The position numbers were made by a program, and so were the translations under genes. Below the pieces are notes generated by a model. The model did not search any database. It had not been told where the DNA came from and was given only the letters and a program-made list of their open reading frames with translations. DNA of 64,000 bases, from assembly GCF_044324875.1 (NCBI RefSeq), contig NZ_CP172185.1. One strand, written 5' to 3'. Positions 4,521 to 33,413 of this stretch are shown piece by piece. The stretch's first letter is position 1. Each line of letters starts with the position of its first letter. This DNA comes from Escherichia coli (GTDB lineage: Bacteria; Pseudomonadota; Gammaproteobacteria; Enterobacterales; Enterobacteriaceae).

Positions 4521-4596
4521 TGGTGGCCCCTGCTGGACTTGAACCAGCGACCAAGCGATTATGAGTCGCCTGCTCTAACCACTGAGCTAAGGGGCC
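4521..4596 (-). tRNA. ileX: tRNA with anticodon CAT of the Ile2 (lysidine-modified) type
   Basis: Reverse complement GGCCCCTTAGCTCAGTGGTTAGAGCAGGCGACTCATAATCGCTTGGTCGCTGGTTCAAGTCCAGCAGGGGCCACCA: 76 nt, cloverleaf-compatible, anticodon loop CUCAUAA, encoded CCA end. Confidence 0.9.
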
Positions 4597-16904: not shown

Positions 16905-17060
16905 ATGCGTGGAATTGTCAACGATTGCGTAGGCCGGATAAGGCGTTCACGCCGCATCCGGCAATCAACGCCTGATGCGACGCTCGCGCGTCTTATCAGG
17001 CCTACAACTGTCGTTGACATGTAGCCGGATAAGGCGTTTACGCCGCATCCGGCAAAATAT
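16905..17060. repeat. BIME: cluster of three REP palindromes between uppP and cca
   Basis: GCCGGATAAGGCGTTCACGCCGCATCCGGC (16934-16963), GCCTGATGCGACGCTCGCGCGTCTTATCAGGCCTAC (16971-17006) and a second GCCGGATAAGGCGTTTACGCCGCATCCGGC (17025-17054). Confidence 0.75.
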
Positions 17061-24921: not shown

Positions 24922-24949
24922 TTGACGCTGTTTTTTTTCAACCTAAAGT
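24922..24949 (+). promoter_or_regulatory. Sigma-70-type promoter of the repeat-1 antisense RNA: TTGACG-N16-TAAAGT
   Basis: -35 TTGACG (24922-24927), 16-bp spacer, -10 TAAAGT (24944-24949); duplicated in repeat 2. Confidence 0.5.
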
Positions 24950-24956
24950 AAAGGAA

Positions 24957-25104
24957 CAAGGGTGAGGGAGGATTTCTCCCCCCTCTGATTGGCTGTTAAT
25001 AAGCTGCGAAACTTACGAGTAACAACACAATCAGTATGATGACCAGCTTCATCATAACCCTTTCCTTATACAAGGCCCCTTCTTCGGGAGGGGCTTTCCC
25101 GTTT
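24957..25104 (+). ncRNA. sibE: Sib-family antisense sRNA (antitoxin), repeat 1; ends are approximate
   Basis: Inferred transcript from the promoter to an intrinsic terminator (8-bp stem GCCCCUUC / GGAGGGGC with UUCG tetraloop at 25075-25094, then a U-rich tract); fully complementary to the 19-codon ORF on the opposite strand. The D versus E label rests on recalled K-12 gene order. Confidence 0.55.
24996..25055 (-). CDS. ibsE: Ibs-family type I toxin, 19-aa hydrophobic peptide MMKLVIILIVLLLVSFAAY
   Basis: Minus-strand ATG ATG AAG CTG GTC ATC ATA CTG ATT GTG TTG TTA CTC GTA AGT TTC GCA GCT TAT TAA, preceded by SD AAGGAAAGGG. Below the 60-aa cutoff of the ORF track. Confidence 0.7.
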   Translation of the reverse strand: MMKLVIILIVLLLVSFAAY

Positions 25105-25296: not shown

Positions 25297-25325
25297 TTGA
25301 CGCTGATTTTTTTTCAACCTAAAGT
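25297..25325 (+). promoter_or_regulatory. Sigma-70-type promoter of the repeat-2 antisense RNA: TTGACG-N17-TAAAGT
   Basis: Same hexamers as repeat 1 with one extra base in the spacer. Confidence 0.5.
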
Positions 25326-25332
25326 AAAGGAA

Positions 25333-25481
25333 CAAGGGTAAGGGAGGATTTCTCCCCCCTCTGAATTGGTTGTTAATAAGCCTGGAAACTTACTAGTAAC
25401 AACACAATCAGTATGATGACGAGCTTCATCATAACCCTTTCCTTCTATAAGGCCCCTTCTTCGGGAGGGGCTTTCCCGTTT
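25333..25481 (+). ncRNA. sibD: Sib-family antisense sRNA (antitoxin), repeat 2; ends are approximate
   Basis: Promoter-to-terminator inference as for repeat 1 (hairpin at 25452-25471 with UUCG loop); complementary to the second 19-codon ORF. Confidence 0.55.
25373..25432 (-). CDS. ibsD: Ibs-family type I toxin, 19-aa hydrophobic peptide MMKLVIILIVLLLVSFQAY
   Basis: Minus-strand ATG ATG AAG CTC GTC ATC ATA CTG ATT GTG TTG TTA CTA GTA AGT TTC CAG GCT TAT TAA with the same SD as repeat 1. Confidence 0.7.
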   Translation of the reverse strand: MMKLVIILIVLLLVSFQAY

Positions 25482-28913: not shown

Positions 28914-29160
28914 GCTTATTCTCAGGGCGGGGCGAAATTCCCCACCGGCGGTAAATCAACTCAGTTGAAAGCCCGCGAGCGCTTTGGGTGCGAACTCAAA
29001 GGACAGCAGATCCGGTGTAATTCCGGGGCCGACGGTTAGAGTCCGGATGGGAGAGAGTAACGATTCTGTCGGGCATGGACCCGCTCACGTTATTTTGGCT
29101 ATATGCCGCCACTCCTAAGACTGCCCTGATTCTGGTAACCATAATTTTAGTGAGGTTTTT
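28914..29160 (+). promoter_or_regulatory. sroG: FMN riboswitch (RFN element) in the ribB leader
   Basis: Conserved FMN-aptamer blocks present: CAGGGCGGGGCGAAAUUCCCCACCGGCGGUA, GCCCGCGAGCG, GCCGACGGUUAGAGUCCGGAUGGGAGA, followed by the expression platform and SD GAGG. Confidence 0.85.
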
Positions 29161-30308: not shown

Positions 30309-31082
30309 TTAACCAATTCCCGCCGTTTGTAGCAGCACTAAACTGAATCCCATCACTGACATTCCACATAGTACGCCATAGCTGGGGTTATTATTAGGGT
30401 CAATCTCTTTGGCGAGCGGCATTAATTCATCAACCGAGAGCGCCACCATAATTCCTGCAACCGCCGCCATGATTGCCGCCATGACCACCGGGGAAATCAT
30501 GCTACCGAGGATTAACCACGCCAGCACACCACCAAGAATTTCTGCCAGTCCAGAAATCCCCGCCCACAGAATCGCGGTACGTTTCGATCCTGTTGCAGCG
30601 TAAACCGGCCCTGCAACGGCCAGACCTTCAGGAATATTGTGCAACGCTACGGCCAGGGCGATACCAAATCCCAGCTCCAGGTTGCTGCTCGCCGTGACAA
30701 AGGTGGCAATCCCTTCCGGGAAGTTATGCAGACTGATACCGAGAGTGAGCAGAATGGCTGTGCGCTTGATCGATTTTGGCAACGGCTGCACCGATTTTTG
30801 CATTAAATCCTGCGGATGCGCATGTGGCAACATGCGGTCCAGGCCAAAATAGCCAAGCAGACCGAAGATAAACATTCCATAACCCAACACAGGCGACATT
30901 CCTTCAGCTGCTAGTGCGGCAGGAAGCATTTCCATTAATGAGATGAGCAACATGATCCCCGCCGCAAATCCTAGCGAAAACGCCAGTAAGCGGTTCGAGG
31001 GTTTTTGCCCGAGAACGCCGAGAAACGCGCCAATAAACGTGGCTGCCCCCGCCAGTATGGTCAGAATGAGAGGTACTGACAT
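30309..31082 (-). CDS. zupT: ZIP-family zinc transporter
   Basis: 257-aa protein [20 protein letters not shown]... from the ATG at 31082 (SD AAGGAG); conserved HNFPEG / HNIPEG motifs. Confidence 0.92.
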
Positions 31083-31197
31083 CGACAACTCCTTATAAAT
31101 CTTCACCTTCAGGCAGATCGTCAAAATAACTGATGATCATCATCATTGTTATCCGGGTTCTTACTCCGCCGAACAAGCGTATTGTGAGGATATCAAA

Positions 31198-32013
31198 ATG
31201 ACACCTTTAGTTAAGGATATCATCATGTCTTCAACACGTATGCCAGCATTGTTTTTAGGTCACGGTAGTCCGATGAACGTGCTGGAAGATAATTTGTATA
31301 CCCGCAGCTGGCAGAAGTTGGGGATGACATTGCCACGCCCGCAAGCGATTGTGGTGGTTTCGGCTCACTGGTTTACCCGTGGAACAGGAGTGACCGCGAT
31401 GGAGACGCCGCCCACGATTCATGACTTTGGTGGCTTCCCGCAGGCGCTGTACGACACGCATTATCCTGCTCCGGGTTCGCCTGCGCTGGCACAGCATCTG
31501 GTTGAGCTGTTAGCGCCGGTCCCGGTGACGCTGGATAAAGAAGCCTGGGGCTTTGACCACGGCTCGTGGGGCGTGCTGATTAAGATGTATCCTGACGCCG
31601 ATATCCCGATGGTGCAGTTGAGTATCGACAGTAGCAAACCTGCTGCCTGGCATTTCGAAATGGGGCGCAAACTGGCAGCGCTGCGAGATGAAGGAATAAT
31701 GTTGGTCGCCAGCGGTAACGTGGTGCATAACCTGCGCACAGTGAAGTGGCACGGTGATAGTTCACCGTATCCGTGGGCGACGTCGTTTAATGAGTATGTG
31801 AAAGCGAATCTGACGTGGCAAGGGCCGGTAGAGCAGCATCCTCTGGTGAATTATCTCGACCATGAAGGTGGCGCGTTATCGAACCCAACGCCAGAGCACT
31901 ATCTGCCGTTGTTGTATGTCTTAGGTGCGTGGGATGGGCAGGAGCCAATTACCATTCCGGTCGATGGTATAGAAATGGGCAGTTTAAGTATGTTGTCGGT
32001 GCAGATAGGCTAA
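31198..32013 (+). CDS. ygiD: 4,5-DOPA dioxygenase extradiol-like protein
   Basis: 271-aa ORF of the extradiol ring-cleavage dioxygenase class III family; an alternative in-frame ATG 9 codons downstream also has an SD. Confidence 0.85.
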   Translation: MTPLVKDIIMSSTRMPALFLGHGSPMNVLEDNLYTRSWQKLGMTLPRPQAIVVVSAHWFTRGTGVTAMETPPTIHDFGGFPQALYDTHYPAPGSPALAQHLVELLAPVPVTLDKEAWGFDHGSWGVLIKMYPDADIPMVQLSIDSSKPAAWHFEMGRKLAALRDEGIMLVASGNVVHNLRTVKWHGDSSPYPWATSFNEYVKANLTWQGPVEQHPLVNYLDHEGGALSNPTPEHYLPLLYVLGAWDGQEPITIPVDGIEMGSLSMLSVQIG

Positions 32014-32058: not shown

Positions 32059-32730
32059 TTAGCCTCTGACGATTTTAAGCGCCCATGCGCCACTCATAAT
32101 GACCAGCAGCACCAGACACATACCAAAAGCCAGCATACAAGCCTGAGCCATATTCATAAAATGCCATGGTGGTAGCAGATACCAGCCTTCAGATTGCTGA
32201 TACATTTCCACAAACCACTGTTGCGTGCTGCTCAGTGTGACGCCATCAGGAACGATTGGGGCGTCATAGCCGCAATCCCCGGTAGGCTTGAACCAATTTG
32301 GTGCCCACTGTGCCAGTGGCAGGTTAAAGGGAAAAGTTGGATCGGTAGAGCAACCCTGTACGCCAAACAGTGAATCGGGATCCGGATTATGTACTGCATG
32401 GTGGATATCGTTCAGTTTGAGCGAAAACTTCAGTCCCAAAATGCTGCCGTAAAATGCCATCACGCAGCCAATTAGCTTTAGGATGATGTTCTTTGGGTTG
32501 ATCGCTGCAACCAATCCTCCAATAACCATCACAAACATGGCGTAGCGAATGTATACACATTGCTCACAGGGTGCCATGTAGAGATAGATCTGGAAGAAAG
32601 AGTGCGCCAGGATAATTAACGCGCCCATCGCAATGGCCATTAACAACCACAAAAAACGTTGTTCTTGCCATCTTACCAGCGTATCCACCGGTGAAGTGCG
32701 AAGGTCTTTCCACATTCCCTTAATACCCAT
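32059..32730 (-). CDS. dsbI: DsbB-family membrane disulfide oxidoreductase, DsbL partner
   Basis: 223-aa membrane ORF with the CEQC motif; immediately downstream of dsbL. Confidence 0.85.
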
Positions 32731-32744
32731 AGCCTGTTTCCCTG

Positions 32745-33413
32745 TTATTTGCTTGCTAACTCGCGGATAAGGTCTGCCATTGAGTCAATAGATTTAATAC
32801 TCTTGGTGTAGATCAGGTATTTACCATTGACGACATACGCCGGAACGCCCTGGATTTTTGCAACTTCATAAGAGGCTTTCCATTTTTCCAGTGTTTCTTG
32901 AACCGCTGGTTCTTTCAGTGCCGCTTCAAAATCCGCCTGACTCATACCTGCGGCATCCAGACCGGTTTTGATAAAAGCAGCCGGATCTTTACCATCAGAC
33001 CAGCGTTCTTTTTTGTCATGATAAGCCGCGTAATAAGCAAACTTGGCTTTCTTAAACTGAGAGTTAGCATCAAATAAGGAAATGCCTGCTGCTTTATCTT
33101 TATTGATCAAGACCGCAAAGACTTCGCTTGCTTGTTTGCCGTATTCACCTTTTGTTTCCAGATGGAATGGAGTAAAAGCAACGATATCTTTCACTTTTTC
33201 CGATACCGGACCGGTAACCGCTTTGTCGTACTTGTAACAGAACGGGCAGGCGTAGCTAAATACCTTAATCAGCGTTTTGTCGGCATTCGGAATAGGTTTT
33301 TCCAGAACCATGTAATCCGTGCCTTCGGTAAATGCAGAAGCGGTAAATGAAACAGCCAAAGCTGCGGTAAGCAGTATGGTTTTAAATAGTGATGAGATCC
33401 CTAATTTCGACAT
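32745..33413 (-). CDS. dsbL: Periplasmic thiol:disulfide oxidoreductase, DsbA paralogue
   Basis: 222-aa ORF with signal peptide and the thioredoxin-fold active site CPFC. Confidence 0.85.

Follow-up and report, generated by a model that had tools for sequence, protein, structure and literature searches.

Alternative in-frame translation starts are classically known from infB and clpB, where the conserved isoforms are set apart by a functional domain. Ribo-RET, from the 2019 work of Meydan, reportedly identifies such starts by initiation-site profiling. The gene ygiD of Escherichia coli resembles alternative-start genes in having two in-frame AUGs, an SD-like motif for each and ribosome signal at both. 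Unlike those of infB and clpB, the two forms of YgiD differ by nine probably disordered residues, and the upstream start is lineage-specific. The locus also recalls gene models that are over-extended towards the longest ORF or the strongest SD: the 271-aa model of YgiD begins at the first ATG, and the orthologues favour the downstream start. Over-extension is clearer in Salmonella, where a 276-aa start lies inside the -10 hexamer, than in ygiD of E. coli. Unlike a pure over-extension artefact, the E. coli upstream ATG is probably on the mRNA (at a predicted +7) and has profiling signal.

The region upstream of ygiD invites two further comparisons. LysR-type boxes are classically centred at -65, and activator-dependent promoters typically have a poor -35. 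Leaderless mRNAs start about 0-3 nt from the AUG, and their efficiency drops with added nucleotides. With yqjF, yhaK and ybiJ of the YhaJ regulon, ygiD shares a T-N11-A box, a 46-nt spacing, a TAnnnT -10 and a poor -35, whereas the regulon member yhhW, unlike ygiD, lacks the 46-nt spacing. If transcription starts where predicted, the upstream ATG would be preceded by just 6 nt on an RNA that lacks an SD for it, which is reminiscent of leaderless or short-leader initiation, but that predicted distance also sets it apart from true leaderless mRNAs (about 0-3 nt).

Two start contexts at the head of ygiD

The window, the whole 64-kb stretch of E. coli DNA that was analysed, contains, on the plus strand where ygiD begins, two ATGs that share a frame, spaced by 27 nt (9 codons) and without an intervening stop. 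The original prediction had described two SD-ATG-like contexts nine codons apart at this 5' end, and both strings are indeed present there and in frame:

31186-31200, plus strand: GAGGATATCAAAATG, the upstream 15-mer, ending in ATG1
31186-31190, plus strand: SD1, GAGGA, upstream SD look-alike (-7.9 kcal/mol; predicted promoter positions -6 to -2)
31187-31195, plus strand: 9-mer AGGATATCA, upstream copy, common to both 15-mers
31198-31200, plus strand: ATG1, opening the 271-aa form; start in the 2006 and the current K-12 annotation
31213-31227, plus strand: AAGGATATCATCATG, the downstream 15-mer, ending in ATG2
31213-31217, plus strand: SD2, AAGGA, serving ATG2 (duplex -5.9 kcal/mol; conserved)
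31214-31222, plus strand: 9-mer AGGATATCA, downstream copy, common to both 15-mers
31225-32013, plus strand: ygiD CDS from ATG2, 262 aa, LigB-family 4,5-DOPA extradiol dioxygenase

Across both starts, the plus strand of the window reads ...GCGTATTGTGAGGATATCAAAATGACACCTTTAGTTAAGGATATCATCATGTCTTCAACACGTATGCC..., and the ORF closes with TAA at 32011-32013, so that its product has 271 aa if read from ATG1 and 262 aa if read from ATG2. The gene is annotated as ygiD in 5,425 of 5,426 complete E. coli genomes. Its product matches Pfam LigB (PF02900, E=3e-19, residues 46-248 of the 271-aa form), is near-identical to PDB 2PW6 and matches plant DODA structures at E ~1e-43. The neighbours are the divergent zupT (start at 31082, minus strand) and a dsbI-dsbL-sulfotransferase island.

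Both ATGs are preceded by an SD-complementary motif at proper spacing, the distance from motif to ATG being 8 nt in each case. The predicted duplex with the 3' end of 16S rRNA reaches -7.9 kcal/mol before ATG1 (pairing GAGG...AUC) and -5.9 kcal/mol before ATG2 (pairing UAAGGA with UCCUUA). About 9-16% of the ATGs in the window score as well as or better than ATG1, and about 24% do so relative to ATG2. A third ATG (31240) was considered as a start and rejected: it is without an SD (-1.3 kcal/mol) and its Met is an invariant internal residue.

The 9-mer AGGATATCA occurs twice in the 64-kb window and nowhere else in it, against an expectation of 0.24, and at least two copies were found in 2 of 100 shuffles. 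Nearby 9-mer direct repeats are common in the window (37 exact repeats no more than 60 nt apart, versus 14.8 ± 4.6 in simulated sequence), so the repeat taken alone is unremarkable. What is unusual is a pair of SD-like motifs joined to a pair of in-frame ATGs, which was found at ygiD only, among the window's 81 ORFs of 100 aa or more. The sole other case among these ORFs is an adjacent ATG pair on the minus strand (13732/13729). The upstream 9-mer is replaced in other genera by GGTGATATCA, GATGGTATCA or AGACCCATCA. Tandem duplication as the source of the repeat was rejected because these genera differ in the GAGGA part; given this difference in the upstream copy, only (T/C)ATCA is ancestral, and GAGGA came about through point changes in E. 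coli.

Annotation history and initiation profiling

Current records disagree on where YgiD begins. The K-12 MG1655 reference (NC_000913.3) uses ATG1 (816 nt, NP_417511.3), and the crystallised construct in PDB 2PW6 is the 271-aa form, while every inspected NCBI-pipeline annotation of E. coli uses ATG2 (789 nt, 262 aa). The disagreement has a history: the 2006 K-12 record placed the start at ATG1 and the 2014 record at ATG2 (3181619..3182407), a shift of 27 nt (Nakahigashi 2016, PMC4909307, Table S3). Curators returned the K-12 record to ATG1 after 2014.

Tetracycline ribosome profiling (TetRP) has been applied to this start. The automatic call for ygiD was 'no change' from 2006, i.e., ATG1, whereas the manual call was '4. 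multiple', with signal at both the 2006 and the 2014 sites (PMC4909307). This places ygiD among the six genes of the both-sites class, for which the authors state that 'alternative start sites function' (PMC4909307). The TetRP libraries were size-selected mainly to 25-50 nt, and poly-A tailing blurs read 3' ends on A, which limits resolution there (PMC4909307). The positions about 15 nt past ATG1 (31213-14) are AA.

The original prediction had offered initiation-site profiling as its check, with a single peak as the outcome that would speak against two starts. No such single peak is seen in the published TetRP data, which have signal at both sites. Its claim that the N-terminus is ambiguous holds, as annotations conflict and TetRP reads multiple, but its view of the two contexts as equivalent functional starts finds no support, because only AAGGA-ATG2 is conserved across Enterobacterales and the promoter layout puts GAGGA upstream of the predicted transcription start. 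The ambiguity is on record already, in the successive annotations and in a published table of initiation profiling, and nothing about it reveals a new mechanism. The text of the N-terminomics supplements that we searched, including TRAINSPOTTER, does not mention ygiD, and the ygiD literature that we found does not address two YgiD proteoforms or a functional difference between them. The case matters mainly for annotation hygiene, with ygiD at 271 aa in the K-12 reference and 2PW6 and at 262 aa in the inspected NCBI-pipeline records. The choice of N-terminus matters for YgiD expression (betalain production) and for ygiD reporter fusions.

Conservation of the two starts across Enterobacterales

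We examined the DNA upstream of 80 loci encoding YgiD relatives. An ATG aligned to ATG2 (tblastn) in 61 of the 63 Enterobacterales loci, the remaining two starting within 3 codons of it, and the N-terminus in these loci follows the pattern M-x-x-x-R-M-P-A-L-F. A motif of the AAGGA/GAGGA type stands at the SD2 distance in most Enterobacterales loci, though some Erwinia and Pantoea have a weaker motif of the GGAG/GGGA type. For ATG2, both the start codon and its SD are therefore conserved in the orthologues.

ATG1 lacks such conservation: E. coli and E. fergusonii alone have it in frame. Outside Escherichia, its position is occupied by TTG, CTG or another triplet, or is absent, in many genera. 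Where an ATG does occur at this position (Citrobacter, Enterobacter asburiae, 'Escherichia' sp. ESNIH1 and Salmonella), it is out of frame, the interval to ATG2 being 26 nt, or 25 nt in Salmonella. The start annotated in Salmonella, which gives 276 aa, is an ATG inside the -10 hexamer and clearly an artefact. E. fergusonii (locus L091) has the 27-nt in-frame interval and encodes MTPLVKDII as E. coli does, a single synonymous change aside, and its upstream motif is GAAGAC versus GAGGAT in E. coli. The SD1 motif GAGGA is specific to E. coli, its counterparts being GAAGA in E. fergusonii, GGTGA/GATGG in Citrobacter and AGAAC/AGACC in Enterobacter. By this orthologue pattern, the in-frame ATG1 is a novelty of Escherichia that arose by a 1-nt insertion, and GAGGA a novelty of E. 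coli. In one genome named E. coli (L004), the sequence reads ATG ACA CCT TAA, with an in-frame stop between ATG1 and ATG2; its 262-aa ORF is intact and its YgiD is 97% identical.

Within E. coli, positions 31176-31235 are identical in 5,087 of 5,424 genomes, and one sampled variant, found in three O157:H7-type genomes, changes the -10 from TATTGT to TATCGT. Polymorphism within the species is uninformative on selection for the extension, as the segment is near-invariant and the sampled variant falls in the -10. E. fergusonii departs from E. coli at 1 of 27 positions in the interval between the ATGs (3.7%) versus 22.5% in the CDS. Such low divergence would agree with selection on the extension, but the universally conserved ribosome-binding site takes up 12 of the 27 nt.

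A predicted YhaJ-dependent promoter reaching the upstream motif

A ygiD promoter fusion is no longer induced by hydroquinone once yhaJ is deleted, the purified regulator retards a ygiD promoter fragment in EMSA, and mutations in the TCA-N7-TGA motif reduce ygiD induction (Palevsky 2016, PMC5031710). The DNA between zupT and ygiD offers the following elements:

31121-31133, plus strand: YhaJ (LysR-type) box TCAAAATAACTGA, TCA-N7-TGA, of the T-N11-A type
31134-31160, plus strand: block TGATCATCATCATTGTTATCCGGGTTC between box and promoter, nearly invariant and gap-free
31158-31163, plus strand: -35-like hexamer TTCTTA, weak (3/6), 16 nt from the -10
31180-31185, plus strand: -10 hexamer TATTGT (TATCGT in O157:H7), at a fixed offset from the box
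31192, plus strand: predicted transcription start A, 7 nt past the -10, deduced from promoter layout

TCAAAATAACTGA is the sole TCA-N7-TGA of the zupT-ygiD intergenic region, and a YhaJ recognition box is present in about 55-60 of the 80 orthologue loci. The published ygiD positions (C50T, T42C/T41C) fit TCAAAATAACTGA only if the count begins at the zupT ATG and runs along the minus strand; the motif positions published for yhaK, yhhW and ybiJ fit their own ATGs exactly. In 40 aligned Enterobacterales upstream regions, the box and the next 27 nt are nearly invariant, TGATCATCATCATTGTTATCCGGGTTC aligning without gaps. Judged by its position alone, this block is probably the second (activation) contact of YhaJ.

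The spacing between box and hexamer is fixed in most loci. A TAnnnT lies 46 nt past the box in 55 of the 65 box-bearing loci, 45 nt past it in 6 and 51 nt past it in 4, and the other offsets tested (36-57 nt) yielded 0-1 locus each. The same 46 nt separate box and hexamer in E. coli yqjF (TATGAT), yhaK (TACCAT) and ybiJ (GATACT), and hence in four of the five E. coli YhaJ-regulated promoters, yhhW being the exception. Past the hexamer, orthologue sequence varies in make-up and length up to the AAGGA-ATG, and the start lies 32-66 nt from the -10. Position seven past the hexamer holds a conserved A with a pyrimidine before it (pyrimidine-A-T in most orthologues).

With standard sigma-70 geometry, the conserved -10 predicts A31192 as the transcription start; in K-12 numbering this is about 3182440 (minus strand), with ATG1 at 3182434 and ATG2 at 3182407. 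Starting there, the transcript would have the box centred at -65, GAGGA at -6 to -2 and ATG1 at +7 to +9, with a 33-nt leader to ATG2. A search for a ygiD transcription start found no match in the Tjaden 2023 transcript compendium or in Romero 2014, and Kim 2012 has ygiD as an orthologue table row only, with no start. The yqjF start site is not given in the NAR 2026 DNT-sensor paper. A simple sigma-70 scan missed the conserved promoter and flagged only ATGACA-17-CATCAT across the start region.

ATG2 as the probable principal start

The explanation that we favour, and that we regard as moderately probable, is that ATG2 is the ancestral and principal start, ATG1 a recent one of at most minor use, and SD1 a stretch of promoter. 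Transcription would proceed from a YhaJ-activated promoter comprising the box (31121-33), the contact block, a weak -35 and the -10 (31180-85), and would begin at A31192. On this transcript, ATG2 (31225), placed behind AAGGA, would yield the 262-aa enzyme as the principal product. The insertion of 1 nt, extending the interval from 26 to 27 nt, would have created the Escherichia-specific in-frame ATG1, only 6 nt from the predicted 5' end of the mRNA. SD1 would fall between the -10 and the start site, and so would probably be missing from the YhaJ-dependent transcript; lying upstream of the predicted start, it would be a look-alike there. ATG1 may then give at most a minor 271-aa form, through SD-independent 5'-proximal initiation or from rarer longer transcripts. 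The conservation pattern, the promoter layout and the annotation conflict are observed, and YhaJ dependence and TetRP signal at both sites are published; where exactly transcription begins, that the mRNA lacks SD1 and how much each ATG is used are inferred.

Several observations speak for this explanation. ATG2 is conserved together with an AAGGA-type SD while the upstream segment varies in length, and the homology-guided NCBI pipeline chooses it in all sampled genomes. ATG1 is missing or out of frame outside Escherichia, the in-frame stop of L004 leaves the 262-aa ORF intact, and E. fergusonii, which has ATG1 in frame, has GAAGAC and not GAGGAT. The promoter part is backed by the conserved 46-nt spacing and the conserved A, and by the published YhaJ dependence and binding. 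The nine residues that distinguish the 271-aa form, MTPLVKDII, are probably a disordered tail without demonstrated function: in the AlphaFold2 model, residues 1-11 have a pLDDT below 50 and the first strand begins at residue 17. The invariant alignment columns all begin at M15. The importance of ATG1 is doubtful.

Several observations stand against this explanation. TetRP has signal at both sites and its automatic call stayed at ATG1. Furthermore, if the mRNA began at 31192, a ribosome positioned at ATG1 would shield only ~22 nt, versus the 25-50 nt that were mainly selected; a real TetRP signal at ATG1 therefore suggests that some RNA reaches upstream of 31192 and carries SD1. The TetRP result and its read lengths form the strongest counter-evidence. 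In addition, K-12 curators went back to ATG1 after 2014, SD1 is the stronger predicted SD, and the 27-nt interval between E. coli and E. fergusonii is nearly unchanged relative to the CDS, its single difference being synonymous in the ATG1 frame. The AlphaFold2 model is mediocre (mean pLDDT 66.5). If our explanation is right, ygiD offers a case of a promoter segment that mimics a ribosome-binding site. What the analysis adds is a dating of ATG1 and SD1 by comparison of orthologues, together with a promoter model for a YhaJ-regulated gene that lends itself to testing.

Alternative readings of the upstream start

A true dual start, in which both contexts are transcribed and used and the 271- and 262-aa forms are both normal products, comes next; we consider it rather unlikely. 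It corresponds to the second option of the original prediction. TetRP (PMC4909307) speaks for it, through the signal at both sites and through read lengths of 25-50 nt, which imply RNA upstream of 31192. It would also agree with two motifs that both pair well with the 16S 3' end at an equal 8-nt spacing, with an ATG1 that stays in frame in E. fergusonii despite a (synonymous) change, and with a 271-aa form that folds and crystallises (2PW6). Yet the TetRP signal is blurred at A, and the bases ~15 nt past ATG1 are AA; at the protein level, the searched N-terminomics supplements gave no match. The only conserved promoter has SD1 in the stretch from its -10 to its predicted start. The comparative data also argue against a dual start, GAGGA being confined to E. 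coli, ATG1 being out of frame or absent outside Escherichia, and one lineage (L004) having a stop in frame. No conserved column falls within the extension, for which disorder is predicted.

A promoter-dependent N-terminus is a further reading, which we think improbable. The YhaJ-induced RNA, begun at A31192 and lacking the upstream SD, would yield essentially the 262-aa protein, and a rarer, basal RNA started further upstream and carrying GAGGA-ATG1 would add the 271-aa protein. Were this so, the ratio of isoforms would read out the induction state, and the Escherichia-specific 1-nt insertion would have given the enzyme a new conditional N-terminal tail.

Still less probable is that ATG1 is the main start in E. 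coli, with ATG2 an internal Met whose SD-like context is an ancestral leftover. The current curated K-12 annotation and the automatic TetRP call both place the start at ATG1, and ATG1 has the stronger predicted SD and gives the longest ORF. Against this, AAGGA-ATG2 is undamaged and exactly matches the context of species for which ATG2 is the sole possible start, and it too has TetRP signal. SD1, moreover, is probably untranscribed from the YhaJ promoter, and L004 keeps an intact gene despite the stop after ATG1.

Folding of the leader bears on a last reading. In a single-sequence fold of the predicted short mRNA, AGGAUAU of SD2 pairs with AUGUCUU, which comprises ATG2 and the bases after it; opening would cost ~6.5 kcal/mol at ATG2 versus 2.8 at ATG1. 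A regulatory ATG1, whereby ribosome loading opens this SD2-ATG2 hairpin or the paired GGAs bind an RNA-binding regulator, could draw on that difference in opening cost, but is highly improbable, since RNAalifold finds neither conserved structure nor covariation in 22 Enterobacteriaceae, the locus matches no Rfam family, the mRNA probably lacks the first GGA and the arrangement is E. coli-specific. A structured RNA in the leader was rejected on the same RNAalifold and Rfam results; the hairpin of the single-sequence fold is not conserved, and the RNAalifold consensus for the leader of these 22 Enterobacteriaceae amounts to -1.76 kcal/mol.

A conserved block between zupT and ygiD

The zupT-ygiD intergenic region contains a block of about 40 nt that is retained with almost no change from Escherichia as far as Serratia, Yersinia and Erwinia, and its conservation far exceeds that of the adjoining coding DNA. 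The block also forms part of the zupT upstream region, encloses a short palindrome, and probably includes both contact sites of the LysR-type regulator YhaJ:

31119-31160, + strand, near-invariant block (TTCAAA..CTGA followed by TGATCATCATCATTGTTATCCGGGTTC)
31131-31142, palindrome TGATGATCATCA, inside the block

Two sets of ygiD promoter mutations, 'C50T' and 'T42C,T41C', have been published with positions given as upstream of the gene's ATG (PMC5031710, Table 1). These positions fit window 31121-31133 only if they are numbered from the zupT ATG (31082), on the opposite strand. Relative to ATG1, the upstream ygiD start candidate, the mutated C of 'C50T' lies at -76. In the same intergenic region, a mechanical ORF list extended zupT (30309-31124, minus strand) to a TTG start at 31124 (271 aa), as against the annotated ATG at 31082 (257 aa), making TTG 31124 a further upstream in-frame start candidate.

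Sequence elements over the ygiD starts

The motif ATCAAAnTGACAC, at the predicted 5' end of the ygiD mRNA, is kept across Enterobacteriaceae. A consensus scan found only one sigma-70-like site, which spans ATG1 to the downstream candidate ATG2:

31198-31226, + strand, ATGACA-17 nt-CATCAT

Its first hexamer is a perfect TTGACA in several other genera. If active, the site would yield transcripts from about 31233, 3' of ATG2, leaving only ATG3 (31240) as a start.

ygiD starts and 5' ends in other genomes

The Salmonella orthologue is frequently annotated at 276 aa (MVMLTKCLS.KDNIMSL...; Salmonella enterica, GCA_011588065.1, locus 601). This form is almost certainly an over-extension, because its start ATG falls within the conserved -10 hexamer (TATGGT); other annotations of this gene give 262 aa.

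Two natural insertion-sequence events have struck the ygiD 5' end. In E. coli SCPM-O-B-12142 an IS3-family element lies shortly 3' of ATG1 (about 31202/3), and in E. coli fS54a, where zupT is missing from the annotation of the locus, IS903B sequence adjoins ygiD within SD2 (the AAGGA ahead of ATG2), between AAG and GATATC. Despite these insertions, the NCBI-pipeline annotations of both genomes retain the 262-aa ORF.

Between E. coli and the E. fergusonii locus, 22.5% of the nucleotides in the ygiD coding sequence (window 31225-32010) differ and the proteins are 86% identical, while the 27 nt 5' of ATG2 differ at a single position. Together, these values may reflect an old allelic replacement or a recombination boundary near the start. 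The coding divergence is well above expectation for this species pair.

Neighbouring genes and RNAs

An island (window 32059-about 35250) separates ygiD from ygiC; K-12 lacks the island and carries ygiC directly after ygiD. The island comprises:

32059-32730, - strand, dsbI
32745-33413, - strand, dsbA/dsbL-like gene
within 32059-about 35250, - strand, aryl-sulfate sulfotransferase gene (from the matching genome CP026723)

Rfam matches at gathering score in the window, none surprising in this E. coli region, were:

4524-4596, - strand, one tRNA
16932-17002, + strand, naRNA4
24922-25070, + strand, Sib antitoxin RNA opposite an ibs toxin gene
25297-25447, + strand, Sib antitoxin RNA opposite an ibs toxin gene
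28914-29062, + strand, FMN riboswitch 5' of ribB
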